64,000 nucleotides of DNA from an uncultured Eubacteriales bacterium (GCA_964541225.1 CAZIPN010000004.1:24382-88381), one strand, 5' to 3'. Counted from the stretch's first letter, positions 7,738 to 46,916 are shown. Notes: generated from the sequence alone by a model not told the origin. Numbers and translations: made by a program.

Positions 7738-7743
7738 GCAGTC

Positions 7744-11587: not shown

Positions 11588-11588
11588 G

Positions 11589-11858: not shown

Positions 11859-11984
11859 CGCGAGCCTGTGACCAGCGGCGACGGCATTCGGACCGCTCAC
11901 AGAAACGCGCTCGCCGTTCCCGGAGCAACGCTCAACGCTACGCTCCGGAACCTGTACGCTTGTTCCAGCCGAGGAGGACGAACC

Positions 11985-12899: not shown

Positions 12900-12901
12900 G
12901 G

Positions 12902-13741: not shown

Positions 13742-13808
13742 GGCTGGTGCCGACGGGATCGATCCGGCATCGAATGCGGCAGTCTCGCCCAGCGAGAGGA
13801 GGTGCACC

Positions 13809-15271: not shown

Positions 15272-15477
15272 AGCTCTCAGCCAGAAACCAGCTTGCCGGT
15301 ACGGTCGCTTCCGTAACGCGCGGTCCCGTGACCTCGCTCGTCAAGATCGACATTGGGGGCGGTCAGCACATCGGCGCGACACTCACGACCGAGGCCGCCG
15401 ACGAACTCAATCTGACCGCTGGCACATCTGTGACTGCCGTGTTCAAAGCGAGTGCGGTTATCATCGGGGTGGAGTAG
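15268..15477 (+). CDS. mop: molybdopterin-binding (Mop/TOBE, molbindin) protein
   Basis: 69 aa. MKLSARNQLAGTV...IDIGGG is the classic Mop signature. ATGA overlap with the modC stop. Confidence 0.8.
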   Translation: MKLSARNQLAGTVASVTRGPVTSLVKIDIGGGQHIGATLTTEAADELNLTAGTSVTAVFKASAVIIGVE

Positions 15478-15565
15478 GCGTCGTCTGCGGGTAGCAGCGC
15501 TTGCGCGGCCGCCGGAGGCCACTCCGTACCGCGTCGGTGTCGGCGACAATCGCAGGAGCAAGAAG

Positions 15566-16033
15566 ATGTCTGTAGCTCTCACGCCTATCGGCGTGATCCA
15601 CACCCCGTTCGCCACGAAGCAAGACGCGCCCATTCAAGGTGCGTTTCACCCCGAGCACGAAGGCACGGTCGAGGTTCTTCCCGAGTTCGAAGAGGGACTC
15701 TACGACATCGACGGATTCTCGCACCTGTTCCTCATCTATCAGTTCGATCGGGCGATTGAGGCGCAGATGCGACGGCCGACGTTTCTCAGCGACGAGGAGC
15801 ACGGGCTGTTCGCCACCCGACATCCCGCACGACCAAACCCGATCGGGCTCACGGTTGTGCGACTGCTCGCCCGCGAGGGCACGCGCTTGACCGTCGGCGG
15901 CATCGACGTGCTCGATGGGACCCCGCTCTTCGACATCAAGCCATACATCCCGCGCTTCGACTGTTTCCCCGACGCCACTGAGGGCTGGTTCGCGGGCGTG
16001 ACCAACCGGCCAAAGCCCCCCGGACGCGAGTAG
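15566..16033 (+). CDS. TsaA/TrmO-like SAM-dependent methyltransferase (UPF0066)
   Basis: 155 aa. PIGVIHTPF..., FSHLFLIYQFD, HPARPNPIGLTVVRL and DGTPLFDIKPYIP are family hallmarks. Confidence 0.75.
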   Translation: MSVALTPIGVIHTPFATKQDAPIQGAFHPEHEGTVEVLPEFEEGLYDIDGFSHLFLIYQFDRAIEAQMRRPTFLSDEEHGLFATRHPARPNPIGLTVVRLLAREGTRLTVGGIDVLDGTPLFDIKPYIPRFDCFPDATEGWFAGVTNRPKPPGRE

Positions 16034-16281
16034 TAGACACGACGAAGCCCCGCTGCGGAGGGGGTGGTCGCCTCGGGGCTCCGTTGCGAATGGGGGGCAG
16101 ATGAGACCGGTGTACATCTGCGCCAGGGGGATTGGCTAATCACATCCCATTCGCTATCGCTAGGACTTGCCCTGACCGGGCAGTGAAGAAACGCATGGCC
16201 CGTGCTATTGGACGGGAGGAGCAACATCTTCGACCAGCGGATACAATTGGTGTACGAGCGCGTGTCGGAGGGGTGGGTGCG

Positions 16282-16968
16282 ATGGCTATCGTTGACAGGC
16301 AGCACTACGCGTTGCAGACAATCTTCTCCTTTTTCTTGGGTCTGATGGTGCTTGCGTTCATCGGCGTGGGGGTGAATACCTTCTACCAATCGCCCGAGGA
16401 ACGGCTCCAGCCGCAGCAGACCAAGATCGAGCGCCAAATGGATGCGATCAACACCAAGACCGACAACCGCAGTCTCACTGCTACCGAGCAGGCGCAGATG
16501 GACACGCTGACCACGCAACAGAATCGACTGCAGGACGAGGTCGACGCCGACATGAAGACGTGGGCGCGCAATACGAGCATCGTCCTGGTGATCTTCGCGA
16601 CGCTGGTTCTCGTGATTTCTCTTATCCGAAGCGATCAGCTACGCGTTCTGTCCAACGGGCTGCTGCTGGGCGGCTTGTTCACGATGCTGTACGGCACCGG
16701 CTGGGTGATCTTCAGCGGCAACTCGGTGGCGCGGTTTGTTGTGATCGCGTTCGCGCTTGTGGTCGCGATTGGCCTGGGCTACGTGAAGTTCGTCTGGCAG
16801 CGCGCGAGCAAGGCACCTGCCGAGAGCCCCGCGAGTGCGCAGGGAGTGGCGCCTGCCCAGGAGTCGGCCGCCTATGCCGAGCTGACTGCGCGCGTGGCAG
16901 CGCTCGAGGAGCGGGCCACCGCCGCCGCGTCGGCGCTCGGTGGGGGACAGCCACCCAAGCCGCAGTAG
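16282..16968 (+). CDS. hypothetical membrane protein (4 predicted TM, Q-rich loop, C-terminal coiled coil)
   Basis: 228 aa from the ATG preceded by GGAGGGG. Hydrophobic segments are clear. No known motif. Confidence 0.5.
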   Translation: MAIVDRQHYALQTIFSFFLGLMVLAFIGVGVNTFYQSPEERLQPQQTKIERQMDAINTKTDNRSLTATEQAQMDTLTTQQNRLQDEVDADMKTWARNTSIVLVIFATLVLVISLIRSDQLRVLSNGLLLGGLFTMLYGTGWVIFSGNSVARFVVIAFALVVAIGLGYVKFVWQRASKAPAESPASAQGVAPAQESAAYAELTARVAALEERATAAASALGGGQPPKPQ

Positions 16969-16998
16969 CGTGCCGCGGCGTTGTTGGCCGTTGGCGAG

Positions 16999-18531
16999 TC
17001 AGCCGGCCTCGAGGTCGTACTTGCGCACCTTGTAGCCGAGCTGTCGAGCGGTCACGCCAAGTTCCCTCGCGGCTTTGGCTTGCACATACGCGTGTCTGCG
17101 TAGTGCGCTGACGATCCGCCGCCGCTCGAGCGCCTCGACTTCGTCTTCGAGCGACATGCCCGCAGTATCTGACTCAGGAAGATCGTGCATGAGGAGGTGC
17201 ATCGGCAGGTCACTCGGCTGGATCACGTCGTCATCCGCGAGCACGACGAGCCGCTGGATCGTGTTCTCCAGCTCGCGAATATTGCCTGGCCACGGATAGT
17301 GCAGCAGCAGCCGCAGTGTCTCTGGCGCCAGCGTCACGACGCGCCCGGCGAGCTGGCTGAAGCGCTCGAGGAAGTGCTCGACGAGCAGCACGATGTCTTC
17401 TCGGCGGTCGCGCAACGCCGGCAAGAAGACGGGCACGACGTTGAGGCGCCAGTACAGGTCCTCGCGGAAGTCGCCGGCCTTGGTCATCTGCTCGAGATCG
17501 CGGTTAGTTGCCGAGACGATGCGTGCGTCGGTGGTCAGCGTCTTGGTGCCGCCCAGTCGCTCGAATGTTCGCTCCTGCAGCACGCGCAGCAGCTTGGCCT
17601 GCAATGCCGGCGACACGTCACCTACCTCGTCGAGGAAGATGGTGCCCCCGCGGGCCAGCTCGAAGCGACCTTGCTTGCTCGCAACGGCGCCGGTGAATGC
17701 GCCTTTCTCGTAGCCGAACAGCTCAGCCTCTAGCAGGTTTTCCGGAAGTGCGGCGCAGTTGATCGCGATGAACGGTCCCTTCGCGCGCAACCCCTGGTAG
17801 TGCAGCGCGTGCGCGATCAGTTCCTTGCCGGTGCCGCTTTCTCCGCGCAATAGCACGGTGGCCTGCGACGCCGCGACCTTGGCGACGACGCGAAAGACCT
17901 CTTGCATCGCATCGGAGTCGCCAATGATGTTGGGCAGTGAGTACCGTCCGCGCAACTCTCGGCGCAGGCTCTCGCGCTTCTCGACCTCGCTCTGATACGT
18001 CCAGTAGAGCCGCACAGCATGGGCGATGATCGATGCGACGATCTCGAGCACACGCACGTCCTCGTCGAGAGCGACCTTCTCGTCGCCGAACACGCGGTCT
18101 GCCGAGAGCACGCCGAGCACCTCGCCGCGCAGCACGATTGGCACGCTGATGAAGGCGATGTCGGCGCGAGCCGGTCGCGACTCGGTGCGGTTCAGGAACA
18201 GGGGTTCCTCTCCGATGTTGGGCACGACCATCGTCTTGCCGCTGCTCACCACCCGGCCCACCACGCCCTCGCCGACGCGGTAGATGCCGCGCGCGATCTC
18301 GGCCCGGGTCAGACCGTGAGCCGCAGCAATACGCAGTTCTCGCGTCTGGGGGTGCACGAGCGCCACGGTGCCACGTTTCAGGTCGAGGCCCTCGGAGAGC
18401 ACTCGCATCGTCTTGCGCAGGTTCCTGTCTATGTCGAAGCTCGAGACCATCGTTTGGCTGACTTGCAGCAGAGCGGCAAGCTCGTCGATGCGAGGGGACG
18501 ATTCGACGTGGGATGTCTTCTTCGGCGTCAT
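16999..18531 (-). CDS. nifA: sigma54-dependent transcriptional activator, NifA-like (GAF - AAA+ - Fis-type HTH)
   Basis: 510 aa. N-terminal GAF. Walker A GESGTGKE, sigma54-contact loop EKGAFTGA, GNIRELEN. C-terminal HTH AKAARELGVTARQLGYKVRKY. Confidence 0.85.
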   Translation of the reverse strand: MTPKKTSHVESSPRIDELAALLQVSQTMVSSFDIDRNLRKTMRVLSEGLDLKRGTVALVHPQTRELRIAAAHGLTRAEIARGIYRVGEGVVGRVVSSGKTMVVPNIGEEPLFLNRTESRPARADIAFISVPIVLRGEVLGVLSADRVFGDEKVALDEDVRVLEIVASIIAHAVRLYWTYQSEVEKRESLRRELRGRYSLPNIIGDSDAMQEVFRVVAKVAASQATVLLRGESGTGKELIAHALHYQGLRAKGPFIAINCAALPENLLEAELFGYEKGAFTGAVASKQGRFELARGGTIFLDEVGDVSPALQAKLLRVLQERTFERLGGTKTLTTDARIVSATNRDLEQMTKAGDFREDLYWRLNVVPVFLPALRDRREDIVLLVEHFLERFSQLAGRVVTLAPETLRLLLHYPWPGNIRELENTIQRLVVLADDDVIQPSDLPMHLLMHDLPESDTAGMSLEDEVEALERRRIVSALRRHAYVQAKAARELGVTARQLGYKVRKYDLEAG

Positions 18532-18741
18532 GGCAATGAGTCAACCACGGTCTTGTTTCGAGTGAATGGCCAAGCCGTTTCGAGTTGGCGTTTGCCGAAG
18601 GGTGGACAGGAGCCAGCCGAATAACGCCGCATGCCCTGCCGCATGCGGACGTTCGCACACGAACTCAGCACGGCGTTCACGCCGCGTTCACGGCATCAGG
18701 CGATACCTAGGGGAGTATCCGCATCGGCATTGGAGAGAGCC

Positions 18742-22812: not shown

Positions 22813-23682
22813 ATGGCCAAGGCCCGAGGCATTCTCGCGACGTACTCTGCACAGCCAACACGCGACGGGGCGGGGGTGCACCTGCGACGGGCTTTCGGTT
22901 CAACTCACTCGCCGCTCTTCGATCCCTTCTTGATGTTGGATGACTATCGGTCTTCAGAGCCGGCTAGGTATCGGAGGGGCTTCCCGTGGCACCCTCACCG
23001 TGGGATCGAAACGGTGACATACCTGCTGCGTGGTGACATTGAGCACTCGGATTCCTCGGGGAATCAGGGGGTCCTCGGCTCGGGATGCGCTCAGTGGATG
23101 ACTGCCGGCCGAGGCATAGTGCACCAAGAGATGCCGATTGGCGATGTCGACGGTGTCCTTGAGGGCTTTCAACTGTGGGTGAATCTGCCTGCAACGCACA
23201 AGATGACCGAACCGTCCTACCAACACGCTTCGTGCGAAGCGATTCCGCTGATAGTGACGATGGATGGCGTTGCCGTGCGTGTCATATCGGGCACCGTAGA
23301 TGGCGTCACGGGTCCCGTACAGGGGCTTGCCACAAACCCCGAGTTTCTCGACATCACCGTTCCTCCGCAGTCGCGTTACGTGCACCCCACTCCCTCTGCG
23401 CACACGGTGTGTGCCTACGTGATTGCAGGATCCGGATCGTTCGCGAGTCACATTCGCGCAGAGGAGCGGGTCTTTGACGGCAGCGCGATTCTGTTTGGCG
23501 AAGGCGACCTGGTCACCGCTGTCACTCGCGAGGACCCGCTGCGGTTCTTGCTGTGCGCCGGGCGACCTCTCCGTGAGCCCGTGGCGTGGTCCGGTCCCAT
23601 CGTCATGAACACCCAGCAGGAACTCGAAAGTGCGTTCGACGAACTGCAGCACGGGACGTTTCTTCACCGTGGAGCTGCCTGA
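22813..23682 (+). CDS. pirin-family protein
   Basis: 289 aa. GFPWHPHRGIETVTYLL and a bicupin layout. Confidence 0.85.
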   Translation: MAKARGILATYSAQPTRDGAGVHLRRAFGSTHSPLFDPFLMLDDYRSSEPARYRRGFPWHPHRGIETVTYLLRGDIEHSDSSGNQGVLGSGCAQWMTAGRGIVHQEMPIGDVDGVLEGFQLWVNLPATHKMTEPSYQHASCEAIPLIVTMDGVAVRVISGTVDGVTGPVQGLATNPEFLDITVPPQSRYVHPTPSAHTVCAYVIAGSGSFASHIRAEERVFDGSAILFGEGDLVTAVTREDPLRFLLCAGRPLREPVAWSGPIVMNTQQELESAFDELQHGTFLHRGAA

Positions 23683-23738: not shown

Positions 23739-25439
23739 CTACGGCTTCTTGGTCCATACGTCGAAATCGGCGACCGTCTCAACTCTCGTGTAGCGCGTCA
23801 GCAGCTGTTCAATGAACGGATTGTCACGCGCTGCGTTCTCGTAGGGCAGCAGATGGAGCCTCCTCATTGAGAACAGATCGACGAAGATCACATCGGGCAT
23901 CGCCTCGTGCTCCTCGAAGTAGTCCAGGGCATACCCGTCCGAGCGTGACGGGTAGAGCCACACAGCGTTGGTGTAGATCTGTCCGCCCACTGCCAGATAC
24001 CCTTGCCGTTCTCCGTAGAACGTGACTCGGGATGTCGGCCTCACCAACCGTTTGCCGGTTGCCTCGAGGGCGAGGATCTCCCGTTGGCGCTCAGGGGTGG
24101 TGTGCATTCCCGCATACATGCCCCCACTGACAACCGCCGTCATGTTCTGAGGCCGTCCGTTGTCGACCGACTCCGACCACACGGTGCCCACAGCGATGGC
24201 GAGGATCGCCACCGACGCCACTGCGAGAACGCGCTCTCCGGACAACGTCTCAAGGGCACTGCCCCATGTGGCGATGACGGCGATCGCAGCCGGAACGATT
24301 CCGATGACGGCGACCCCGCGCATCCACGGGGCATCCGTCGAGTACGCGACGGCAGCAAACCCGACCGCTGAGGCTGGGAGCGTGAGGACGAGCAGCGAGA
24401 GCAGGTCGCGGCGCTTCTCCGAGGTGGCCCACACGGCTGTGGGCGCGATGGCAGCGAGCGCGAACGTGATGAGCCAAGCGCTCGCGGTCATGCCGAACAC
24501 GCGCTGGCTCAGGACAATGGCCTGAACGGTGGGCGGCAGTGCGAGTATCGGTAGTGAGAACAGCAGCCAGGCGCGAACGTTGCGTGAAAACCGAGGCACG
24601 CATGCGAGTGCTGCCGCGACCCACATTGGCCACAAGAGCGGTTGTCCCAAGGACCCGGAGAGCCGCGTGGCCGCGCGCTGCAGCTTCTCGGCAGGGGAGC
24701 GGAAGCTCTCGACGTTGGAGGATGCGTAGCGCAGACCCCGAGTGATCTCGGTGATGGACACGAACGCCAACAGGCTGCCGACGAAGACCAGGCTGGTCAC
24801 TGCGGCCGTGATCAGGAGCGGCAGAACGATCCGCCGGTCACGCGTGCGAACGATCAAGACGAAGGCGAGGGTCGCGGCTGCAATCGCCAATGGCGGGTAG
24901 GTGACCGATGCGAATACGAGGGCGACGCCGGTTCCAGCCGCCGCGAGCGGGCTGCGGTCGTGTTCGGCGCGATACGCAAGGGCAACAGCCAGCACAAAAC
25001 CGATGGTGGTCATCTGGTTGTAGCCGGGGGCGAACAGGTTGAACGGTGGGCACAGAAGCGGAACGCTTACGGCGAGTGCGGCGACGAGCGGATGCAACGA
25101 TCGTCGGAGCTGGACGTAGGCGACAAAGGCCACTCCCGCTGCGAGGGCTACGTAGAACAGACGGAATGCGGCTACCAACCCGAACGTGCCGAAGAGGTGA
25201 ATCCACACCCACACGAAGCCTGCTGCCGGCAGGAAGCCGAGTGATTGCACCGACATCTCGTCGGCGAATGGTCGCGCGCCCTCGGCAAGACGAAGCGCCA
25301 CGGTGACGTAGTGGCTGTCGTCGTAGAAGGAGACACCGAACGTCGAGCGCAGCGCGGTGAGTGCGAGGACGATGAGAGCCGCCATCGCGATCGCAATGCG
25401 TTCGGCTCCCCATCCCTGTCGGTTGGTAGGCGCTGGCAT
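23739..25439 (-). CDS. polytopic membrane protein, putative GT-C-type glycosyltransferase
   Basis: About 566 aa from MPAPTNRQGW. At least 12 hydrophobic segments. Acidic first-loop motif FYDDSHY. C-terminal soluble domain. The family assignment is tentative. Confidence 0.45.
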   Translation of the reverse strand: MPAPTNRQGWGAERIAIAMAALIVLALTALRSTFGVSFYDDSHYVTVALRLAEGARPFADEMSVQSLGFLPAAGFVWVWIHLFGTFGLVAAFRLFYVALAAGVAFVAYVQLRRSLHPLVAALAVSVPLLCPPFNLFAPGYNQMTTIGFVLAVALAYRAEHDRSPLAAAGTGVALVFASVTYPPLAIAAATLAFVLIVRTRDRRIVLPLLITAAVTSLVFVGSLLAFVSITEITRGLRYASSNVESFRSPAEKLQRAATRLSGSLGQPLLWPMWVAAALACVPRFSRNVRAWLLFSLPILALPPTVQAIVLSQRVFGMTASAWLITFALAAIAPTAVWATSEKRRDLLSLLVLTLPASAVGFAAVAYSTDAPWMRGVAVIGIVPAAIAVIATWGSALETLSGERVLAVASVAILAIAVGTVWSESVDNGRPQNMTAVVSGGMYAGMHTTPERQREILALEATGKRLVRPTSRVTFYGERQGYLAVGGQIYTNAVWLYPSRSDGYALDYFEEHEAMPDVIFVDLFSMRRLHLLPYENAARDNPFIEQLLTRYTRVETVADFDVWTKKP

Positions 25440-25635
25440 GCGCGAAGGATACGGCGGCACGGGTTCGTCAGCAAGCAGCGGGACGGGGCGCGGCGCAGGG
25501 GACGGGGCGGCCCGGGTTCCTCGGCAGGCATGAGTGGGCGGGGCGCCGTGGGAAGCCACAAGCGGGGAGAATCGAGACACAGAGCGCGACAGGGGGATAT
25601 TCAACGGAGTCTACGAGCCGAAAGGAGCAGCTGCT

Positions 25636-26040
25636 ATGAGCGACTTCATCGAGCTGACGAGTACTGAGGGTCTTGAACCTGGGATGATGCGCCGTGTTGC
25701 CCTCGAGGACCATGAGTTTCTTGTGGCTAGGATCGGCGATGAGTACTACGTGACTGACGGGCGCTGTGCACATCTCGGCGGAGATCTGAGCCGAGGAGTG
25801 CTCGACGGAACGGTGGTTACATGTCCGCTTCATCACTCGCAGTATGACCTGAGGGATGGTCGGGTCTTGCGGTGGACGGACTGGTCGGGCGTCGTTCTGT
25901 CGGTCGCCGAGCTCCTGAGGCACCCGCGGCCGATTCGCGCTTATGAGAGCAAGGTGGAGGAGGGCAGAGTGTTCGTGGGGCCGCAGAAGCCATGTCCGCC
26001 GGTGGATATCGCGAGCCAGGAGTCGTCTCCCCCCGTGTAG
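25636..26040 (+). CDS. Rieske [2Fe-2S] domain protein
   Basis: 134 aa. CAHLGG ... CPLHHSQY. ATG preceded by AAAGGAG. Confidence 0.8.
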   Translation: MSDFIELTSTEGLEPGMMRRVALEDHEFLVARIGDEYYVTDGRCAHLGGDLSRGVLDGTVVTCPLHHSQYDLRDGRVLRWTDWSGVVLSVAELLRHPRPIRAYESKVEEGRVFVGPQKPCPPVDIASQESSPPV

Positions 26041-26250: not shown

Positions 26251-26997
26251 GTGGCACTCGAGGGCAACCTCAAGGACTTCTCACTTGCCGACATGTTTCG
26301 GCTGCTGGACAAGGGCTCGAAATCGGGCACTTTGCACGTGACGACCAGGGACTCCGAAGGCATCGTGTGCTTCAGGGGTGGCCAGATCTTCTACGCCTCG
26401 GCGAGCACGCAGCGTGAGCCCACCGGCAAGCGGTTGACGCGGGCCGGCATCATCACCGAGAAGCAGCTTAGGCAAGCGCAGGGTCTGATGAAGATCCAGA
26501 AGCGCGACAAGGCTGACCGCAGACTCGGCCAGATCTTGGTCGACGAGGGGTATGTCGAGCCGGGCATTCTCGAGAATCTGGTCTCCGAGCAAGTCGCTGA
26601 CGCGCTCTTCGTGATGCTGCGATGGGACGACGGCGAGCTTCGCTTCGAGCCCGACGAGCATCGAGCCGATGTGGACCTTGGCTTCACCCTGCCGGTTGAC
26701 CAAGCTGTCACTGACGCCGAGAAGCGCCTGGATGCATGGGAGCGTATTCGGGAGAAGGTGCCATCACTGGACACCCGCTTCGAGATGTCTGCTATGCCGG
26801 GGCAGAAACCGACCGAGATTCATCTGAAACCGCGCGAATGGATGCTGCTGTGCTTCATGCACGGCGCCAAGAGCGTGTCCGAACTGGCCCAACTCACCGG
26901 CTACAACGATTTCGACACCGCGAGAACCCTATATGGGATGTTCACCGGGGGCCTCATCGAGAAGGTCGAGTCAGCCGGGGAGAGTTCGTCGGGCTAG
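26251..26997 (+). CDS. PATAN/DUF4388 domain protein (stand-alone)
   Basis: 248 aa. N-terminus LEGNLKDFSLADMFRLLDKGSKSGTLHV...GIVCFRGGQIFYA is the DUF4388 signature. GTG start with a GAGGAGG SD. First gene of the che operon. Confidence 0.75.
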   Translation: MALEGNLKDFSLADMFRLLDKGSKSGTLHVTTRDSEGIVCFRGGQIFYASASTQREPTGKRLTRAGIITEKQLRQAQGLMKIQKRDKADRRLGQILVDEGYVEPGILENLVSEQVADALFVMLRWDDGELRFEPDEHRADVDLGFTLPVDQAVTDAEKRLDAWERIREKVPSLDTRFEMSAMPGQKPTEIHLKPREWMLLCFMHGAKSVSELAQLTGYNDFDTARTLYGMFTGGLIEKVESAGESSSG

Positions 26998-29074: not shown

Positions 29075-31084
29075 ATGACGATGTCCGAAACGACTTCAAT
29101 TGCCGGACGCGTACTCGACGGGCTGGTGTCGGCGGGGATTCTGTCCGCCGATCAAGAAGCCAGCGCGCGAGACGGTGCGGCATCCGATGCAGACGCCGGC
29201 CGTTCTCTGGTCTCCCTCGGGGCCATCAACTCAGCTCAGATCGCGACCGTGCTCGAAGAAGGCATGGGCGTTCCGCGGGTTGACCTGGCGAGCTACGCGC
29301 CCGATGATGACGCGCTTGTGCGTGTTCCCGCAGACATCGCGCGGGCTCATCATGTGCTCCCGCTCTTTGAGATCGAAGGAATGCTGACGGTTGCCATCGG
29401 CGATCCACAAGACGTGTTCGGGCTCGACTCCCTAGGATCCGAGCTCTCGCTTGAAGTGGAGATGGTGCTTGCCGACGCTCCGGCGGTCACCTCTTCGATC
29501 GCGCAATACTATGGCGCACCTGCAGCCGAGCAGGAACAGCTTGAGGTCGCAGAGCCCCTGGGCGCTGCGGAGCCGGTTGCCGAGTCCGTCACTGAGCCGG
29601 TTGCGCAGGTTCCCGAGATGTCAGAGATCGTTGAGCCAGTAGCTGAGTTCGGGGCCCCAGCCGGCCAACCTGGCGGTCAGGTGCCGGACGAGGGCGTGTA
29701 CTTCGATGGCGTGCCGGTTGTGGCGGACGCTGACGAGCTTGAGATGTCGGCGACGGACTTCTTCGAAGTGAGCGAGGACGTTCCGGTCGTTGTGGACGCG
29801 CCCGAGGCCGTGCACGAGGAACTTGAGAGTGCCGAGGCCAATACCGTGCAGACGGTTGAGGAGGTCGTCTCGGCGACCCCGGAATCCACGTCAGGCATTG
29901 ACCTCGACGTGCTTGCGGTCGCGGACGATCGCAAGGTCAGCGTGCTGGTCTCAGACATCCTCGACCAGGCTGTGGCGCGCGGTGCAAACCGCATCCACCT
30001 GCTGCCGTATAAGAACGACTTCTTCCTGGTCTTTCGCATCCAGGGACGGCTCGAGAAGATCGCGAGCGCTCCGCTCTCAATGCAGGGGCCGCTTATCGAG
30101 GGTTTCAAGAACTACGCGAAGCTGGGTGCCGTGCCCGCCGACTTGCCCGCGCTCGGCAGACTCCATGCCGACATCGGCGGCAAGGGGCTGGTGCTCACCG
30201 TTTCGTCGGTACCGACCGTGGCGGGACAACGCCTTGTTGTGTCGATTGCCCCAGCTCGTCCTCAGCCGCGGGATTTCCTCGAACTCGGCATGACAGAAGC
30301 TGAGTCCAAGGCGCTCCAGGCAATGGTTGAGCGCGGACGCGGCATTCTGCTGGTCTCAGCACCCGTCGCCGGTGGGCGTTCCAGCACGTACTACGCTCTG
30401 CTGCAGCACGCTGCTCAGGCCGGAAAGACGGTGTATTCGGTCGAACGATCCATCGAGTATGAGATCCCCGCGGTCGCTCAGGTCCTTGTGAATCCGGGCT
30501 CGCCCGTTGGTGCGGCGTCCTACTTCGCCGCTGGCATGCGGCAAGACACGGACATGCTGGCGATCGACTCGATTCAATCGGTCGAGGACGTTCACCTGGC
30601 GATCGAGGCCGCCGGTCTCGGCAAGCTCGTGATCGCGACGTTTGCGGGAGCCGACATCGTTACGGCCGTGCGCAGGATGCTGGATCTGGGCGCCGAGCCG
30701 GTTTCGCTGGCCAGCGCGCTTACGCTTGGAATCGGGCAGCGCGTTGTGCGGACCAACTGTCCGAGCTGCACGGTCGAGGAGGAGAGTCCGCTGGCCGCCA
30801 AGATTCCGGGAGCCAGCGCGGGCATGACCGCCAGGCGCGGGGCCGGGTGTGCGGCGTGCGCCAACACCGGATTCGCTGGGGCAACCGGGATCTTCGAAGT
30901 GCTGCCCTTCACCGAATCCATGCGCGCTGAGATCGCGCGCGGCGCAACTGCCGAGCAACTCCTGGCCGCCGCACGTGCTGCCGGCATGCGCCCGATGATC
31001 GCGTCGGGTCTCGCGAAGGTGCGTGAGGGCGTGATCAGCGCCGAGGAACTCGATCGCGTACTGCGTTTCTCGGTGTCGAGGTGA
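29075..31084 (+). CDS. PilB/GspE-family protein with degenerate ATPase motifs (predicted pseudo-ATPase). It has an N-terminal T2SSE_N/MshEN-like domain and retains the CxxC...CxxC motif.
   Basis: 669 aa. T2SSE_N pattern (VPRVDL...ARAHHVLPLFEIEGMLTVAIGDPQD). The Walker A position reads APVAGGRSST, Walker B reads DTDMLAIDSIQS and the His box reads GKLVIATFAGA. NCPSC...GCAAC is retained. Confidence 0.8.
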   Translation: MTMSETTSIAGRVLDGLVSAGILSADQEASARDGAASDADAGRSLVSLGAINSAQIATVLEEGMGVPRVDLASYAPDDDALVRVPADIARAHHVLPLFEIEGMLTVAIGDPQDVFGLDSLGSELSLEVEMVLADAPAVTSSIAQYYGAPAAEQEQLEVAEPLGAAEPVAESVTEPVAQVPEMSEIVEPVAEFGAPAGQPGGQVPDEGVYFDGVPVVADADELEMSATDFFEVSEDVPVVVDAPEAVHEELESAEANTVQTVEEVVSATPESTSGIDLDVLAVADDRKVSVLVSDILDQAVARGANRIHLLPYKNDFFLVFRIQGRLEKIASAPLSMQGPLIEGFKNYAKLGAVPADLPALGRLHADIGGKGLVLTVSSVPTVAGQRLVVSIAPARPQPRDFLELGMTEAESKALQAMVERGRGILLVSAPVAGGRSSTYYALLQHAAQAGKTVYSVERSIEYEIPAVAQVLVNPGSPVGAASYFAAGMRQDTDMLAIDSIQSVEDVHLAIEAAGLGKLVIATFAGADIVTAVRRMLDLGAEPVSLASALTLGIGQRVVRTNCPSCTVEEESPLAAKIPGASAGMTARRGAGCAACANTGFAGATGIFEVLPFTESMRAEIARGATAEQLLAAARAAGMRPMIASGLAKVREGVISAEELDRVLRFSVSR

Positions 31085-36974: not shown

Positions 36975-37901
36975 ATGGAATCAGCTGCCATCGGCATCTT
37001 CGACAGCGGGCTTGGCGGACTCACGGTTGCGCGGGAGATCGCTCGTGCGCTGCCCGATGAGTCCCTCATCTACCTCGGCGATACGGCGCGTTGGCCGTAT
37101 GGGCCGCGCGACTTCTCTGAAGTCCGGCGATTCGTGCTTGAGATCGGCTGCTGGCTTCAGTCTCACGACGTCAAGTTCATCGTCGTGGCGTGCAACACGG
37201 CGACCGCCGCCGGTCTCATGCTCGCGCAGCGCGCGTTCTCCGTGCCTGTGATCGGCGTCATCGAGCCAGGAGCCCGAGCAGCTGTCATGGCCACGCGCAA
37301 CCGCAGTGTCGGAGTTATCGGCACAGTCGGCACGATCGAATCGGGCGCCTACAGCCGAGCGGTTCGCGCACTGGACGCTGGCGTGACGGTCTTCTCGATC
37401 GCAACACCGCGCTTCGTCGACATCGCCGAGGAGGGTCTGCGCCTCGACGTCGGGCCCGTCGAGGGCCTGCTTGCTGACTCGGCGGACGTCTTCGTACGGC
37501 CGTCCTTCCATGAGATCGCACGCGACTACCTCGATCCTCTCAAGCGAAACGGCATCGACACCCTCGTGCTGGGCTGCACGCACTACCCGCTTCTGTCCAC
37601 GGCGATCCAGCAGGTGGTCGGTGCTCGCGTGCAGCTCATCAGCTCGGCACATGAGACAGCCATCGAAATCGCCGAGACCCTTGCTCGCCGAGGGCAGCTC
37701 GCGCCAACCGGCGCGACACCGCACCACCGCTTCGCGACCACGGGGGACGCTATCGAGTTCCGGCGTCTTGGCTCGCGGGTCTTTGGCTCGCCGATTCCGC
37801 GTGCCGAAACGGTGCCGGTGGCCGCGCTCACGGGCCTACCGAACGGCGAGCTACTCGCGCTTATGGACGATCGAGCGACGTGGGAGGCTTCATGCGCGTG
37901 A
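36975..37901 (+). CDS. murI: glutamate racemase
   Basis: 308 aa. IGIFDSGLGGLTV, VVACNTA and LGCTHYPLL (both catalytic Cys contexts). Confidence 0.92.
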   Translation: MESAAIGIFDSGLGGLTVAREIARALPDESLIYLGDTARWPYGPRDFSEVRRFVLEIGCWLQSHDVKFIVVACNTATAAGLMLAQRAFSVPVIGVIEPGARAAVMATRNRSVGVIGTVGTIESGAYSRAVRALDAGVTVFSIATPRFVDIAEEGLRLDVGPVEGLLADSADVFVRPSFHEIARDYLDPLKRNGIDTLVLGCTHYPLLSTAIQQVVGARVQLISSAHETAIEIAETLARRGQLAPTGATPHHRFATTGDAIEFRRLGSRVFGSPIPRAETVPVAALTGLPNGELLALMDDRATWEASCA

Positions 37902-38659
37902 CAGTTCTTGGCTCCTCGGCGAGCTACTCCGGACCGCAGCGAGCGTGTGCCGGGCACTTCTTGGAGGCTGCGGGCGCCCGGCTTCTCCTTGACTGTGGGA
38001 ATGGCGTGATTGCCAATCTCGCGCAGATCCAGAACCCGGAAGACATCGACGCGGTGTTCATCACGCACAATCACCCCGATCACTACGCCGATATCTACGT
38101 GCTGCACGCCGCATTGCGCTACGCGCCGAGCGGTCCGCGTCCACCGCTGCCGCTCTACCTGCCGAAAGGTCTGTGGGAGCGGCTGCCATGTCTGCTCTCC
38201 GAGCGAGGTGCTGCCGACTTCGCCGAGGCGTTCATTCCGGTTGAACTCGAGCCCGCCACTGCAATCATCATTGGCGGTGTGAAGATCACGCCAATCCCGG
38301 TTGAGCACACCGAGCCCACGTTTGCGTTGGTCGTGGAGGCGGACGGTGAGCGATTCGCCTACACGTCGGACACCGCCATGTGTCCAGGAGTGCGTGAGGC
38401 AGCCCACGATGTCGACCTGTTGCTTGCGGAGGCGACACTTCCGGAGCGATACGCCGACCAGGCGCCGCATCTCACGGCGTCCCAGGCAGGGACGCTTGCG
38501 CGCAAAGCTGGTGCGCGGGCGCTCGCGCTCGTTCACGTATGGCCGACGAACGATCGCGTCGAGATGGCTCGGCAGGCAAGCGAGGCATTTGGCTCGGCGG
38601 TATTTGTCGCCGAGGAATTCGATGTCTTTGACATCGACACACGAGATGGAGATGACTGA
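37892..38659 (+). CDS. MBL-fold metallo-hydrolase (position equivalent to the mycobacterial gene between murI and rph)
   Basis: MRVTVLGSSAS...FITHNHPDHYAD (HxHxDH). ATG preceded by GGGAGG. Overlaps the murI stop. Confidence 0.8.
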   Translation: MRVTVLGSSASYSGPQRACAGHFLEAAGARLLLDCGNGVIANLAQIQNPEDIDAVFITHNHPDHYADIYVLHAALRYAPSGPRPPLPLYLPKGLWERLPCLLSERGAADFAEAFIPVELEPATAIIIGGVKITPIPVEHTEPTFALVVEADGERFAYTSDTAMCPGVREAAHDVDLLLAEATLPERYADQAPHLTASQAGTLARKAGARALALVHVWPTNDRVEMARQASEAFGSAVFVAEEFDVFDIDTRDGDD

Positions 38660-39406
38660 ATGGGCCTTCGAGCCTCCGGCCGCGCCAACGATGCTCTGCG
38701 ACCCGTTCGCGTGACTCGGCGCTACCTCAAGCACGCGATGGGCAGCTGCATCTTCGAGCTCGGCGACACCCGCGTGCTGTGTGCCGCCAACGTCGACGAG
38801 GGCGTCTCGGCGTGGAGGCGCGGTAGCGGGCTTGGGTGGGTGACTGCCGAGTACGCCATGCTGCCGGCGGCGACGCACACCCGTTCCCGCCGAGAGAGCA
38901 CCAGCGGTGGCCCCAAGGGCCGCACGCAGGAGATCCAGCGACTTGTCGGCAGGTCGCTTCGTAGCGTTGTCGATCTGGCGGGTCTCGGCGGTGAGGTGAC
39001 CGTCACGGTTGACTGCGACGTCTTGCAGGCCGATGGCGGGACGCGCACCGCGGCAATCACGGGCGCCTACATCGCGCTGCGCGACGCGCTTGGCGTGTGG
39101 ATGGCGGCTGGCAAGATCGCGAGCCTGCCGCTGATCGAGCAGATCGCAGCGACGAGTGTGGGGATGGTCGACGGCGAGCTGCTGCTGGACCTGGAGTACG
39201 CCGAGGACTCCATCGCCGAGGTGGACATGAACGTCGTGATGGACGGGCGCGGGCGATTCATCGAGGTGCAGGGTACCGGCGAGCGGACACCGTTCGAGCG
39301 CGAGCGTCTCGACGCGCTGCTCGATCTGGCTGCCGGTGGGATCGATCGCCTCGTCGCGATTCAGAACGAGATTGTGAAGGGCGATATCGATGTCTTCGAA
39401 TCCTGA
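38660..39406 (+). CDS. rph: ribonuclease PH
   Basis: 248 aa. RANDALRPVRVTRRYLKHAMGSCIFELGDTRVLC, GWVTAEYAMLPAATH and DCDVLQADGGTRTA. Confidence 0.93.
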   Translation: MGLRASGRANDALRPVRVTRRYLKHAMGSCIFELGDTRVLCAANVDEGVSAWRRGSGLGWVTAEYAMLPAATHTRSRRESTSGGPKGRTQEIQRLVGRSLRSVVDLAGLGGEVTVTVDCDVLQADGGTRTAAITGAYIALRDALGVWMAAGKIASLPLIEQIAATSVGMVDGELLLDLEYAEDSIAEVDMNVVMDGRGRFIEVQGTGERTPFERERLDALLDLAAGGIDRLVAIQNEIVKGDIDVFES

Positions 39407-40010
39407 CGAGGGAATCGACGTCGTTGTTGCGAGCTCCAATCACGGCAAGCTCGCCGAGATTCGCTCCGCTTTGGATTTCCCCGGCTGGCGTTTCAAGTCC
39501 GCTTCCGAACTCGACGAGGAATGGCCGAGTCCCGAAGAGACGGGGGACACGTTTGAGGCCAACGCGCGCATCAAGGCCAGGGCGGCCTATGAGCGCTTCG
39601 GGCTGGCCGCGCTCGCCGACGACTCGGGACTTGAGGTCGACGCGCTCGACGGCGAGCCGGGCGTCTACAGCTCGCGCTACGCAGGTCCCTGCGCGACCGA
39701 CGCCGAGAACAACAGCCGACTGCTGCTCGCGCTCAAAGACGTGGTCTCGTCCGATCGGCGCACGGCTCGCTTCCGCTGCACCATCGTATTCGTGGCACCG
39801 GACGGGACCGAGATCGTCGGCACGGGTACCTGCGAGGGCCGGATTGGCTTCGCGCCTCGCGGCGATGGCGGCTTCGGCTACGACCCGCTGTTCGAGCCCG
39901 ACGCCACGCGTGGACGCACGATGGCCGAGCTCTCCCTTGCCGAGAAGAACGCGATCAGCCATCGGGCAGCGGCACTCGCCGACGTGCGTGCCAGACTGAG
40001 GGGAGCGTAG
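39390..40010 (+). CDS. rdgB: non-canonical purine NTP pyrophosphatase (RdgB/HAM1)
   Basis: 206 aa. VVASSNHGKLAEI, ADDSGLEVDAL.GEPGVYSSRY and GFGYDPLF. Confidence 0.9.
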   Translation: MSSNPDEGIDVVVASSNHGKLAEIRSALDFPGWRFKSASELDEEWPSPEETGDTFEANARIKARAAYERFGLAALADDSGLEVDALDGEPGVYSSRYAGPCATDAENNSRLLLALKDVVSSDRRTARFRCTIVFVAPDGTEIVGTGTCEGRIGFAPRGDGGFGYDPLFEPDATRGRTMAELSLAEKNAISHRAAALADVRARLRGA

Positions 40011-43572: not shown

Positions 43573-44718
43573 CTAGAGGGGCGAGCCCTCACCTTGTTGC
43601 TGGGGGCTCTCGGCGGAGGTCTTTGGCTGCAGCACCCAATCGAGCAGCGTGTTCTTGAGGCTTGAGTTTCGGCTGCACGCGGGGCACAGCCCCTCAGTGA
43701 GGTAGCTCGCTGTCTTCCCGCACTGTGTGCAGACGCCGCGCTCAAAGACGCGCAACGTCCTCGCGTCTCGGCCCGGCTCTTCGGCCTGGCTGGAGATGGC
43801 GTCTTGCGGACAGACGAAACTGCATTGGCCGCAGTCAACGCAGATCTCGGGCTTGAAGATGAACTCCACTTTCGTGTCCGTCTCGACGCGGCTCAGTGCT
43901 CCCGAGGGACAGAAGCGACTGCACAACGAATGCGCCTCTTGGCAGTCGTCACAGGCGTCGCTGATAGCGAGTCGAGGGAAGACAACGGGGTCTGTGTCAA
44001 GCACCGAGGCAAGGAGGAGTTCTCGGCGGGCGGGGATCTTTGCGGGGAGTGGACGCGGTCCCCATTCCTTCTCCTCGGCGGCCGGAGGATCGCTCACGGC
44101 GTCTCGGGCGCGCTCCACGATACCCATGAGGAACGCTCGGCGGTCAAGGGTCTCCTCCTTCGGAGGGACGAGCTCGTCGAGAGTCTGGGCGAAAGAGGCG
44201 TCAGGGATGCTGTGCTCCTCGTGCATCTCAACGGCCAGACGACCAGGCCACCGCTTGCGCACTCGCTCGATCGTGCTACCGATGATGTCGCGGGCGTGAA
44301 GCACGCAGGCTTCGCCATCGCCCGTTCGCAGAACGAGCGTTTTGACTCCCTTGCCAGCCAAGGCAAGAAGCAGGTCGTCATCGAGCATTCCGAGGCAGGG
44401 GAGCACACGAGACGAACTTGCGGATGGGTCGCATCCTTGTGCCGAGGTGCACGCGCAGCTCAGCGTGAGGGTGTCTCCATCTCGGCCAACCCCGTTGTCG
44501 AGGAGCGCTGCGAGATCGAGGCCGCGCACCGAGAATACCGAAGTCGGGCACGCAGAGAGGCATAGTCCGCAGCCAATACACAGAGCCTGGTCGACGATCA
44601 CGCGTCCGCCATCCAACGTGATAGCGGACGCGGGGCACACATCTTGACATCGCCTGCACTCAGAGTGCGAGTGCAGCCGCACGAGACACGAGGTCGACTC
44701 TGTCTCGATGACAGGCAT
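43573..44718 (-). CDS. multi-cluster 4Fe-4S ferredoxin-domain protein (NapF-like, cytoplasmic). Last gene of the oxidoreductase operon.
   Basis: 381 aa. CRRCQDVCP, CIGCGLCLSACP, CDDCQEAHSLCSRFCP, CVDCGQCSFVCP and C-terminal CTQCG...CPAC. No signal peptide. Confidence 0.7.
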   Translation of the reverse strand: MPVIETESTSCLVRLHSHSECRRCQDVCPASAITLDGGRVIVDQALCIGCGLCLSACPTSVFSVRGLDLAALLDNGVGRDGDTLTLSCACTSAQGCDPSASSSRVLPCLGMLDDDLLLALAGKGVKTLVLRTGDGEACVLHARDIIGSTIERVRKRWPGRLAVEMHEEHSIPDASFAQTLDELVPPKEETLDRRAFLMGIVERARDAVSDPPAAEEKEWGPRPLPAKIPARRELLLASVLDTDPVVFPRLAISDACDDCQEAHSLCSRFCPSGALSRVETDTKVEFIFKPEICVDCGQCSFVCPQDAISSQAEEPGRDARTLRVFERGVCTQCGKTASYLTEGLCPACSRNSSLKNTLLDWVLQPKTSAESPQQQGEGSPL

Positions 44719-45368
44719 CAGGTACCTGGCAGCGGACGTGGGCGCAGGATCTTGGCGGACGTGCTCGCCTTGGGTGCGCTATCAGCGAGCAGCGCTTCTT
44801 CCATCGAGAGGAAGTCGCCGAGAAGCTTGCCGAAAGCGCGATACAGGTCGAGCTTCGCGGCGCGCTGGATGTCTGCGGCGAACTTTGGCATCCAAGTGAG
44901 CAGGTGATTGGTCAGGAACGTCTTCTGGGCAGGCATTGTGTCGGTTTGGTCATCCTCTTCAGCCATGCGAATGACAAACGCCATGAACTCGAGTTCCGCT
45001 CCAGCGTAGTCGGCGAACTCATTGTCGACCTCAAGACCCCACTGCCTGTACGTGTGGGCCGCCGCTGCCGTCGCATTGCCCACGAGCGTCTTCTCGCGGT
45101 ACGCAGACTCGTACGGCGGACACGGAACATGCGGGTAGTTGTTCACGAACAACCCAGTGTGCTCGCCCTGCAGGTTGTCCAAAGGCACTGTCTCCAGGTC
45201 ATCGAGACCAGCGGCGAGGTCATCGAGCTCCTTCGCCAGAGGTCCAGAATCCTCGCCCGCCGACAAGACCTCGACCAACTGACGGAACTCGTCCGCAAAG
45301 GTCGGATGCGGGTAGACAAGCCCTTGGGCCAGAAGGATGTAGCACGCGGCCCTTGACTCTTCGTTCAT
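44718..45368 (-). CDS. TorD/DmsD-family molybdoenzyme maturation chaperone
   Basis: 216 aa. YILLAQGLVYP...HTGLFVNNYPHVPCPPYESAY, typical of the TorD-like family. Sits within a molybdopterin oxidoreductase operon. Confidence 0.75.
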   Translation of the reverse strand: MNEESRAACYILLAQGLVYPHPTFADEFRQLVEVLSAGEDSGPLAKELDDLAAGLDDLETVPLDNLQGEHTGLFVNNYPHVPCPPYESAYREKTLVGNATAAAAHTYRQWGLEVDNEFADYAGAELEFMAFVIRMAEEDDQTDTMPAQKTFLTNHLLTWMPKFAADIQRAAKLDLYRAFGKLLGDFLSMEEALLADSAPKASTSAKILRPRPLPGT

Positions 45369-45395
45369 GCGACTTCCTAGGTTGTCTCCTCCGGA

Positions 45396-46307: not shown

Positions 46308-46319
46308 CGTTCCCTCCCT

Positions 46320-46913: not shown

Positions 46914-46916
46914 TGC

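Follow-up and report, generated by a model that had tools for sequence, protein, structure and literature searches.

A conserved PilB-like protein with degenerate catalytic motifs is encoded within a Frz-like, PATAN-associated chemosensory operon

The DNA analysed here is a stretch of 64,000 nucleotides assigned to an uncultured Eubacteriales bacterium (GCA_964541225.1, CAZIPN010000004.1:24382-88381), which we refer to in its full length as the window. It carries an intact open reading frame (ORF) of the family of PilB and GspE, the extension ATPases of the type IV pilus (T4P) and the type II secretion system (T2SS), and the product of this ORF, hereafter called pseudo-PilB, is the subject of this report. 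The gene is the fourth of nine co-directional and tightly packed genes that encode, in this order, a PATAN protein, a CheR fused to tetratricopeptide repeats (CheR-TPR), CheY, pseudo-PilB, two CheW proteins, a chemotaxis protein of the methyl-accepting type (MCP), a CheA kinase with a receiver domain (CheA-REC) and CheB (Table 1). Only 8 nt separate the end of the CheY gene from the ATG of pseudo-PilB, whose TGA stop overlaps the GTG start of the first CheW gene in the sequence GTGA. The GC content at third codon positions (GC3) of the pseudo-PilB gene, 0.74, is similar to that of the adjoining genes. Translation may start at ATG 29081 (Met3) rather than at the annotated ATG 29075, from which the N-terminus reads MTMSE...; Met3 is at least 90% conserved, the family consensus starts at the position of Met1, two residues ahead of Met3, and a strong Shine-Dalgarno sequence is not evident ahead of either codon.

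The operon unites the core chemosensory set of MCP, CheA, CheW, CheR, CheB and CheY in one cluster and, with its CheR-TPR, its CheA-REC and its two CheW proteins, is of the Frz-like kind. The residues of CheY required for phosphorylation are all present (DD10-11, D54, T84 and K106). Direct reading of the MCP sequence revealed two hydrophobic N-terminal segments about 12 residues apart, followed by the HAMP and signalling domains, and this short spacing argues that the MCP has no extracytoplasmic sensor domain. Two CheW proteins, CheA-REC, CheR-TPR and CheB are shared with the Frz system of Myxococcus xanthus (FrzA/B, FrzCD, FrzE, FrzF and FrzG), and automated annotation named the orthologues of the CheR-TPR and MCP genes in Coriobacteriaceae bacterium EMTCatB1 'frzF' and 'frzCD'. 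The Frz cluster is not known to contain a PilB-like or a PATAN gene, FrzCD is cytoplasmic, and the output runs via FrzZ/FrzX to MglA/MglB. In contrast, the MCP described here has two hydrophobic N-terminal segments and the cluster includes pseudo-PilB. Chemosensory clusters with a CheR-TPR belong mostly to the 'alternative cellular function' type (PMC3447774).

According to Pfam, pseudo-PilB contains the T2SSE core (PF00437; aa 283-661, 212.8 bits, E=7.7e-63) and the MshEN/GSPII domain (PF05157; aa 64-150, 59.7 bits, E=2.8e-16). The NCBIfam equivalog models for PilB (TIGR02538) and GspE (TIGR02533) match it from end to end, but with 281.2 and 265.6 bits it reaches less than half of the respective cut-offs of 675.65 and 630.25. 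Pseudo-PilB is a member of the PilB/GspE family by homology, without an orthologue-level score. A phmmer search of all sequences in the PDB retrieved the PilB/PilF proteins of Geobacter, Myxococcus and Thermus and the GspE of Vibrio with E-values of 1e-69 to 1e-49, PilB chains being aligned at ~1e-68, and HMMER matched the N-terminal domain of MshE (5htl) to the N-domain of pseudo-PilB (E=2.5e-7). The AlphaFold2 model, built from a 39-sequence family alignment, has a predicted local distance difference test score (pLDDT) of about 95 for the N-domain (aa 9-150) and mostly 80-96 over the N2 domain (N2D) and the C-terminal domain (CTD; aa ~270-667), with two low-confidence loops in the core, the P-loop at 432-434 (pLDDT <50) and residues 467-478. 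The comparison of such a model with PilB structures, as proposed in an earlier note on this DNA, returned a PilB fold: the best Foldseek matches in the PDB were PilB 5tsh, EpsE 1p9w and PilF 5oiu, at E-values of ~1e-31 to 1e-30 and 30% identity (5tsh_E: E=7.9e-32, target-normalised TM score 0.66). N-domain and core are separated by an acidic, disordered linker which the same note had put at about 130 aa and which measures 120 aa, with 25.8% D/E, no K/R and pLDDT <50 at 152-257; across the family, the linker ranges from 49 to 175 aa and is acidic in every member (median 25% D/E).

The catalytic motifs were registered in a residue-by-residue HMMER alignment of pseudo-PilB to the Geobacter PilB chains 5zfr, 5tsg and 6olj. 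PilB and pseudo-PilB read, respectively, lvtgptgsgktvslys and lvsapvaggrsstyya in the Walker A region, taedpve and sversie in the Asp box region, lrqdpdiimigeirdfe and mrqdtdmlaidsiqsve in the Walker B region, and ghlvlstlhtnd and gklviatfagad in the His box region. In Walker A, GPTGSGKT has become APVAGGRS, with the Lys replaced by Arg and the pattern GxxGxGK[ST] lost. The Asp box has ERS for EDP (AEDPVE to VERSIE) and no longer fits ExDPxE. Walker B reads DTDMLAIDSIQS in place of the canonical DPDIIMIGEIRD, VGEIRD being replaced by IDSIQS; in the resulting MLAIDSIQS, Gly is exchanged for Asp, the catalytic Glu for Ser and Arg for Gln, and hhhhGE followed by IRD is absent. Both His residues are gone from the His box, which reads GKLVIATFAGAD instead of GHLVLSTLHTND. 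A fifth motif, missing from the earlier list of four, is altered in the N2D, where canonical representatives carry E[RK]R[LV]PQDGR[IF] (RRLPQDGR), the family carries xxD[LV]PALGR[LM] and pseudo-PilB has PADLPALGR (ADLPALGR), with the first N2D Arg replaced. An intact GxxxxGK[ST] or catalytic Glu was found nowhere else in the core in the alignment to solved PilBs.

The registration made by eye in the earlier note coincides with this alignment, and the positions given there for Walker A, Walker B, the His box, GLVSAGILSADQ (aa 16-27) and SLVSLGAINSAQ (aa 44-55) are correct on the ORF, in which ARAHHVLPLFEIEGMLTVAIGDPQD lies at aa 89-113. Its central claim, that this PilB/GspE member has other residues at all four catalytic signatures but keeps the N-domain and the tetracysteine (Cys4) motif, agrees with the HMMER alignment, the Pfam matches and 120 homologues described below. 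Three of the substitutions (K435R, D458R and H517K) introduce or keep a positive charge, and the exchange of Gly-Glu for Asp-Ser lets the Walker B strand end as a classical hhhhD, which together suggest a pocket that was remodelled and not merely broken.

Compared with the PilB/GspE proteins of known structure (Geobacter PilB 5tsh/5zfr, Vibrio EpsE 1p9r and Thermus PilF 5oiu), pseudo-PilB has the same order of N1/GSPII, linker, N2D and CTD with Cys4, at ~30% core identity. It differs from them in having other residues in place of the Walker A Lys, Asp box, catalytic Glu, both His-box histidines and the first Arg of the N2D motif, in its equivalog scores, and in being encoded in a che operon and not beside pilC, pilT and pilM; no pilC/gspF, pilT or pilM was found next to it in the 64-kb window. 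It thus lacks five sequence-level defining features of an active PilB/GspE, falls below the curated cut-offs and stands outside the usual genomic association with platform genes. These sequence features identify pseudo-PilB as a predicted catalytically dead paralogue of the T4P/T2SS extension ATPase, a conserved inactive pseudo-enzyme, which is not to be filed as a PilB or GspE ATPase but as a coherent, conserved variant, a che-embedded pseudo-PilB.

A homologue search of 5.8 billion proteins with pseudo-PilB gave 451 matches at E <=1e-10, the best 120 of which, 59-88% identical to pseudo-PilB, were taken as its close family. The 12 commonest Walker A strings account for 94 of these 120 homologues and contain GGRS without exception. 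The replacement residues recur as SVER[SA] in the Asp box, AIDSxQS in Walker B and G[KR]LVIATFAG in the His box. The first Gly of Walker A, which the earlier note had reported as lost, is indeed lost in pseudo-PilB (APVAGG) but present in some family members (AGPVGGGRS). Across the 39-sequence alignment, no variation is seen at G434, R435, S436, E457, D498, R362 or any of the four Cys, and R458 is at least 90% conserved. Mean identity to pseudo-PilB is 0.79 in the N2D and in the CTD, 0.59 in the N-domain and 0.41 in the linker; the "dead" core is the most constrained part of the protein. Since the replacement residues are conserved and the core is the best conserved region, pseudo-PilB is under purifying selection and not decaying, in agreement with the earlier note.

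A scan of one genome per GTDB species detected 111 relatives of pseudo-PilB, and 80 of these 111 loci were fetched. The fetched relatives are metagenome-assembled genomes labelled Coriobacteriia, Anaerosomatales or Actinomycetota, plus EMTCatB1, and labels such as 'Eubacteriales' or 'Aeromicrobium' among them are probably artefacts of binning or naming. The ORF is intact in 81 loci, nearly all of them from distinct species-level genomes. The loss of every catalytic motif is what one would expect of a decaying pseudogene or an annotation artefact; this explanation is refuted by the intact ORFs, the 79% mean identity of the core with its conserved replacement residues, the GC3 matching that of the neighbours and the transcription of the EMTCatB1 orthologue, and we consider its probability negligible.

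The context of the 81 loci was read by tblastn with the proteins of the window, missing matches falling at contig ends. Wherever the contig extends, CheY lies directly upstream and CheW directly downstream of pseudo-PilB, and the full operon is found wherever the contig leaves room, which confirms the tie to the che pathway that had been proposed. The 2.5-Mb chromosome of GCA_942493275.1 (L001), for instance, has the same nine genes in identical order. Matches were obtained for CheY in 79 loci, for the first CheW in 76, for CheR and MCP in 70 each, for PATAN in 69, for CheA in 61 and for CheB in 58. Within the operon, conservation is highest for CheY, with 79-93% identity in 78 of its 79 matches (the lone match at 35%, in L049, is not the operon CheY), compared to 51-75% for pseudo-PilB; in distant loci, where pseudo-PilB is only 27-43% identical, CheY still reaches 63-78%. 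Such strong conservation of CheY implies many simultaneous binding partners. Pseudo-PilB itself is, together with the CheW proteins, among the fastest-evolving parts of the module.

When 1.84 billion cluster representatives were searched exhaustively with HMMER, 30,219 T2SSE-type matches were obtained. Beyond the close family, none of the intermediates of 32-50% identity has the Asp box or the His box, and the residue at the Walker A Lys position varies among them: it is Lys in P0133, P0140, P0170, P0271, P0277, P0283, P0284 and P0291, Arg in P0131, P0132 and P0136 as in the close family of pseudo-PilB, Ser in P0290, P0294, P0295 and P0297, Ala in P0121, P0123, P0125 and P0134, and Val in P0127. 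Most intermediates have Asp at the Gly position of the PilB Walker B, and the deepest keep an Asp-Glu pair; canonical PilBs with all motifs intact come next, at ~30% identity to pseudo-PilB. In a midpoint-rooted neighbour-joining tree of the core of 141 representatives, which has no support values and a provisional deep branching order, 13 representatives including pseudo-PilB form one clade, and P0133 and the trio P0136/P0140/P0170 branch near the root on the opposite side.

The phylogeny and context check proposed in the earlier note gave the expected picture: the nearest non-canonical copies form a clade, and every non-canonical relative whose surroundings can be read adjoins receiver (REC) and/or CheW genes, in the same type of operon if the contig is long enough. 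P0123 (L084), P0136 (L086), P0140 (L085), P0170 (L088 and L089) and P0291 (L090) lie in an operon of PATAN, CheR-TPR, REC, the pseudo-PilB relative and CheW as far as the contigs reach. The very short contigs L082 and L083 allow a view of one side only: in L082 the upstream side of P0133, with a receiver gene, and in L083 the downstream side of P0131, with CheW-like ORFs. Four distant operon loci have a GC content of 33-43%, compared to 63% here; pseudo-PilB, CheW and CheR are at 24-39% identity in these organisms, and CheY reaches 63-71% against 27-29% for pseudo-PilB. That subsurface actinobacteria and lineages of such different GC content share the operon, with CheY at 63-71%, suggests that the module is old and crosses major lineages. 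The simplest history would be a single loss of both the Asp box and the His box when the che-embedded clade arose, followed by later, independent losses of the P-loop Lys and of the catalytic Glu in sub-lineages.

Two of the distant loci deserve separate mention. In L084 (contig_14219, 525 kb), which encodes P0123 with the Walker A sequence GSGAE, the genes past the two CheW genes (13113-18592) are called as short or odd fragments, in which tblastn still matches MCP (72%), CheA (48%) and CheB (44%); these fragments reflect either frameshift errors of a long-read assembly or genuine erosion of the operon. The low-GC loci L085 (7526-8038) and L086 (7529-8044) carry an extra gene of about 170 aa between the PATAN and CheR genes. 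The one in L086 encodes a Ras-like small GTPase (Arf 30.7 bits and Ras 22.3 bits, both above cut-off), and the one in L085 has no family match in Pfam. This arrangement recalls the MglA-type prokaryotic GTPases that are occasionally encoded near PATAN proteins (PMC4316618).

The N-terminus of pseudo-PilB contains two copies of an LVxxG(I/A)(L/I)xxxQ pattern which had been likened to the tandem motif of cyclic di-GMP (c-di-GMP)-binding MshEN domains. Both copies exist, but the pattern reflects the generic helical hairpins that form the N1 bundle. The strict MshEN motif is a tandem of 24-residue units, RLGxx(L/V/I)(L/V/I)xxG(L/V/I)(L/V/I)xxxxLxxxLxxQ, 5 residues apart, and its relaxed search form is [RKPN]hGxxhhxx[GAS]hhxxxxhxxxhxx[QNKRYWST] (PMC5013675). 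The strict motif occurs in none of the 120 family members, the relaxed one is absent from 119 of the 120, and the required tandem pair is found in none; the NCBIfam c-di-GMP_motif model NF053729 scores 16 bits on pseudo-PilB against a cut-off of 38. In repeat 1 of the family, a conserved Leu stands for the guanine-bonding Gly, a conserved Arg for the second Leu of LxxxL and Ala or Ser for the Gln; in repeat 2, Ala, Glu or Asp takes the place of the stacking Arg, and Glu or Asp that of the Gln. The MshEN motif is likewise absent from 71 of 119 canonical PilB representatives.

Genes of c-di-GMP turnover lie less than 10 kb from the operon in L001 (3211-4875) and L084 (21329-21977), with the architectures PAS-GGDEF-EAL and GAF-HAMP-GGDEF, which indicates that these two organisms use c-di-GMP although pseudo-PilB lacks the MshEN binding motif. 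A function as c-di-GMP receptor through an MshEN-type N-domain could draw on these neighbouring genes, on the match to MshE and on the two hairpins with their LVxxG(I/L) patterns; with the published motif lacking in the family and conserved, non-permitted residues at its key positions, we rejected it on sequence grounds and regard it as highly improbable.

T4P or secretion genes were not found in the 64-kb window. A view of a whole gene set is offered by EMTCatB1, which carries the che operon (L066) and for which a table of genes and transcripts is published (PMC7943316, supplementary file 2). Its che operon comprises 1d0153 (hypothetical), 1d0154 (cheR, 'frzF'), 1d0155 (receiver), 1d0156 (pulE), 1d0158 (cheW), 1d0159 ('frzCD') and 1d0160 (cheA). 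A separate locus on the other strand contains 1c0227 (pilM), four hypotheticals, 1c0232 (prepilin peptidase, pilD), 1c0233 (pulF, pilC), 1c0234 (pilT) and 1c0235 (pulE/PilB), and 1d0891 is a second pilT (PMC7943316). All these che-operon and pil genes are transcribed, with 262 transcripts per million for 1d0156, the pseudo-PilB orthologue, and 260 for 1c0235 (PMC7943316). At the level of the lineage, two cultured Anaerosomatales are rods that are non-motile in liquid and carry many pili-like appendages, which in one of the strains are induced by ferrihydrite (PMC9686372).

PATAN is the domain that provides the output in PatA-type regulators, PATAN-REC genes lead the Tfp-class che loci of cyanobacteria, and in Synechocystis a PATAN domain binds the N-terminal domain of PilB1 and PilC-NTD (bioRxiv 10.1101/2021.06.11.447907). 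The operon described here resembles these loci, whose regulators PixG, PixE and LsiR bind PilB1/PilC (bioRxiv 10.1101/2021.06.11.447907), in that a PATAN gene comes first and a separate CheY is present. The cyanobacterial output acts on the N-terminal domain of PilB, and such an N-domain is kept by pseudo-PilB, which is encoded three genes downstream of PATAN. In contrast to the cyanobacterial loci, PATAN stands alone here, without REC, and the operon has its own PilB-like protein, a TPR-fused CheR and a Frz-like CheA-REC hybrid.

Natural fusions of PilB to a receiver were found in P0359, P0362, P0363 and P0370, which are canonical PilBs of ~765-776 aa with intact motifs and a C-terminal REC (E=4.5e-29 in P0359) and represent direct phospho-control modules on the pilus motor ATPase. 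Together with PilZ/FimX (PMC11656802), these fusions are a precedent for regulators or receivers acting directly on PilB; they act on a catalytically active PilB, whereas the PilB-like partner described here would itself be inactive. PilB-PATAN fusions, for which Oceanithermus-type proteins of 883-887 aa (P0272-P0312; L091) had been candidates, were rejected: the PF14332 signal is marginal (30.5 bits), with no single passing stretch, and the proteins are PilF-like, have three MshEN domains and adjoin pilT. The alpha-clip repeat, common to PATAN and PilB N1 domains according to Han et al., probably accounts for this signal.

Guided by these precedents, namely the binding of PATAN to PilB1 in Synechocystis, the PilB-REC fusions and the signalling of M. 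xanthus PilB to the Dif pathway discussed below, we propose that pseudo-PilB, a fixed, co-inherited part of a Frz-like, PATAN-associated chemosensory module, acts as a non-catalytic adaptor to the pilus machine, a reading to which we assign a probability of roughly 0.55. Pseudo-PilB would power nothing and serve as a hub of protein interactions. Its N-domain would be bound by the stand-alone PATAN protein of the operon and/or by phosphorylated CheY, and the complex would dock on the pilus platform (PilC/PilM), either replacing the real PilB or co-assembling with it. In this way, the kinase activity of the Che array might turn pilus extension on or off or shift it from one cell pole to the other. 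A nucleotide or phosphate may still be bound, without being turned over, by the GGRS P-loop together with the newly acquired basic residues R458 and K517, and would then serve as a structural or allosteric ligand.

Several points weigh against this adaptor role. The direction of the link between the che pathway and the pilus and its partners are ones that we infer, the partners from gene order, from the cyanobacterial analogy and from the fusion proteins. Single-domain CheY-type regulators did not bind pilus proteins in a yeast two-hybrid screen in Synechocystis (bioRxiv 10.1101/2021.06.11.447907), which makes the binding of CheY to pseudo-PilB the weaker half of the model. Co-occurrence with T4P genes is seen in one genome, that of EMTCatB1, in which 1c0235 is called PilB by the published annotation, and no second PilB/PilT-type gene was present in the ~1.5 Mb fetched (90 loci and the window). 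Apparent double matches to PilB in these sequences were discarded, as they were the N-domain and the core of one gene separated by the linker. Furthermore, pseudo-PilB could equally stand on the input side of the che pathway, and the GGRS P-loop and hhhhD Walker B look compatible with residual nucleotide binding or even slow hydrolysis.

The last point leads to an alternative in which GGRS, hhhhD and the basic residues form a working site, either a nucleotide-gated switch for partner binding or a slow, atypical ATPase. It would explain the invariance of G434, R435, S436 and D498 and the retention of R362 in the N2D, and the P-loop GPVGGGRS of some members is a Walker A in which the Lys-to-Arg exchange stands alone. 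P-loop Lys-to-Arg mutants often retain nucleotide binding. In the deep relatives P0140, P0170, P0133 and P0291, GK[ST] is retained in Walker A and Asp-Glu in Walker B, which makes it possible that the ancestor of the che-embedded proteins bound ATP. On the other hand, pseudo-PilB has lost the catalytic Glu, the Asp of the Asp box and both His, and the P-loop is the least confident core part of the model. As the Walker A Lys position is so variable across the che-embedded clade (K, R, S, A or V), nucleotide binding is not a clade-wide requirement. To judge from its motifs, residual binding is plausible for the sub-family of pseudo-PilB; as an account of what the protein does, the switch or slow ATPase appears unlikely.

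Pseudo-PilB may instead be an input transducer, through which the array would be informed of the state of the pilus machine or the nucleotide pool. This would be a hard-wired version of what is found in M. xanthus, where PilB signals to the Dif chemosensory pathway without need for ATP hydrolysis, ATPase-deficient PilB still supports exopolysaccharide signalling upstream of Dif, and nucleotide-free PilB was proposed to be the active signalling state (PMC5544727). The likeness lies in a PilB-type protein linked to a che pathway independently of ATP hydrolysis, as we propose for pseudo-PilB. It is limited by differences: M. xanthus has one catalytic PilB with two jobs, encoded in the pil cluster, compared to a dedicated dead paralogue inside the che operon here, and M. 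xanthus PilB carries c-di-GMP motifs (PMC5544727), which pseudo-PilB lacks. The absence of a sensor domain in the MCP of the operon would require the input to come from the membrane or the cytoplasm, and pseudo-PilB is translationally coupled to CheW, a component of the array. DifA, the MCP of the Dif pathway, is likewise not known to have a sizeable periplasmic domain. An output role is in better accord with the CheY gene directly upstream and with the presence in the same operon of PATAN, an output domain known to bind PilB; we therefore regard the input role as rather improbable.

A further possibility is that pseudo-PilB forms a putative hexameric PilB-like ring that organises the array or joins PATAN and small-GTPase modules, with an output other than T4P. 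The predominance of the 'alternative cellular function' type among CheR-TPR clusters would agree with such a scaffold of array or polarity, as would the Ras-like GTPase gene in the L086 operon, the family-less gene at the same position in L085, the MglA-type GTPases sometimes encoded near PATAN proteins and the finding that a pilus gene is adjacent in none of the loci. However, wherever partners of PATAN domains or PilB N-domains have been identified by experiment, these are components of the pilus motor, and EMTCatB1 has a T4P locus, and we judge the scaffold to be distinctly unlikely.

Returning to the adaptor, a more specific form of it can be put forward tentatively, as a possibility that we consider less likely than not: PATAN, CheY and pseudo-PilB might constitute an ancient, cross-phylum output cassette in which pseudo-PilB acts as a Che-controlled decoy or poison subunit, competing with or joining the PilB hexamer at PilC/PilM.

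The remainder of the window contains a nif cluster, regulators, a molybdopterin oxidoreductase, trigger factor, ClpX and valyl-tRNA synthetase. The nitrogenase cluster (3923-13741) is of note in that the host looks like an Anaerosomatales/Coriobacteriia-type actinobacterium, a class not usually linked with nitrogen fixation. The polytopic 621-aa protein encoded just upstream of the operon is matched in only one other locus (L044, 25% identity), which suggests that the upstream flank is variable. A minus-strand ORF of 618 aa at 37583-39439 was dismissed as spurious, as it overlaps real plus-strand genes (racemase-like, Lactamase_B and RNase PH). The minus-strand genes at 43573-49841 encode a molybdopterin oxidoreductase (974 aa) exported by twin-arginine translocation, a 4Fe-4S subunit, an NrfD-type membrane subunit, a NarJ-like chaperone and a further Fe-S protein, which by their sequences make up a predicted respiratory complex of the polysulfide/thiosulfate/tetrathionate reductase type.

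Table 1 Features of the che operon, of pseudo-PilB and of other parts of the window, with positions counted from the first letter of the window.
Feature	Position	Strand	Evidence or remark
Stand-alone PATAN (PatA_N/DUF4388) protein, 248 aa, first gene of the operon	26251..26997	+	Pfam PF14332 E=3.2e-31
CheR fused to TPR repeats (FrzF-like), 536 aa	27001..28611	+	Pfam CheR 3e-56, CheR_N, TPR_2/16/17
Single-domain CheY receiver, 126 aa	28686..29066	+	Pfam Response_reg 3.9e-31
Pseudo-PilB, PilB/GspE-family predicted pseudo-ATPase, 669 aa	29075..31084	+	intact 669-codon ORF
N-terminal domain, aa 8-150 (four-helix N1 bundle and GSPII/MshEN alpha-beta subdomain)	29096..29524	+	pLDDT, Pfam, HMMER
Acidic disordered linker, aa 151-270	29525..29884	+	composition and pLDDT
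Degenerate N2-domain motif PADLPALGRL	30134..30163	+	in place of E[RK]R[LV]PQDGR[IF]; R362 invariant (39-sequence alignment)
Degenerate Walker A APVAGGRSST, aa 429-438	30359..30388	+	Lys to Arg
Degenerate Asp box SVERSIE	30437..30457	+	EDP to ERS
Altered Walker B, aa 491-502	30545..30580	+	VGEIRD to IDSIQS
Degenerate His box GKLVIATFAGA, aa 516-526	30620..30652	+	both His gone
Retained tetracysteine Zn motif (C562, C565, C592, C595)	30758..30859	+	invariant in 39-sequence alignment
CheW 1, 165 aa	31081..31578	+	Pfam CheW 2.2e-30
CheW 2, 183 aa	31581..32132	+	Pfam CheW 3.4e-28
MCP with HAMP, 408 aa	32154..33380	+	Pfam MCPsignal 5.6e-45, HAMP 7.3e-10
CheA-CheW-REC hybrid kinase (FrzE-like), 796 aa	33420..35810	+	Pfam Hpt, H-kinase_dim, HATPase_c, CheW, Response_reg
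CheB methylesterase with receiver domain, 348 aa	35828..36874	+	Pfam CheB_methylest 1.6e-58, Response_reg
nifH	3923-4771		
Two Oxidored_nitro genes, nifD/K type	4773-7737		
890-aa protein, fused nifE/N-like	7744-10416		two Oxidored_nitro domains
Two P-II genes	10848-11587		
Radical-SAM gene	11868-12899		
Periplasmic binding protein gene	12902-13741		
Pirin gene	22813-23682		
621-aa polytopic membrane protein	23739-25604	-	many hydrophobic segments, no Pfam match; just upstream of the operon
Rieske-domain gene	25534-26040		

The route from non-flagellar chemosensory pathways to their targets is still largely unresolved, and the known links between che pathways and T4P are indirect or species-specific, as exemplified by PilG/PilH with FimX/FimL in Pseudomonas, PATAN-REC in cyanobacteria and Frz with MglA in Myxococcus. 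Here, a presumed target-side component is written into the operon itself, in the form of a PilB look-alike between CheY and CheW genes, with PATAN ahead. In the searchable literature, which leaves out most papers in subscription journals, we found no published description of a che-embedded pseudo-PilB. Database labels on these proteins as GspE, PilB or TadA ATPase lead to wrong inferences of 'secretion' or 'pilus assembly' from genomes. The operon constitutes a small, defined set of proteins open to pairwise interaction tests, in a lineage with cultured, piliated representatives (Anaerosomatales), and the clade offers a natural series that begins with members having both the Walker A Lys and Asp-Glu in Walker B and ends in full degeneracy, which may help to separate those features of a secretion ATPase that serve chemistry from those that serve scaffolding. 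If the reading as a decoy or poison subunit were true, pseudo-PilB would be the first pseudo-enzyme regulator of a motor described for a bacterial pilus, and would provide a direct molecular route from a non-flagellar che pathway to the pilus motor in Gram-positive, Frz-like systems.

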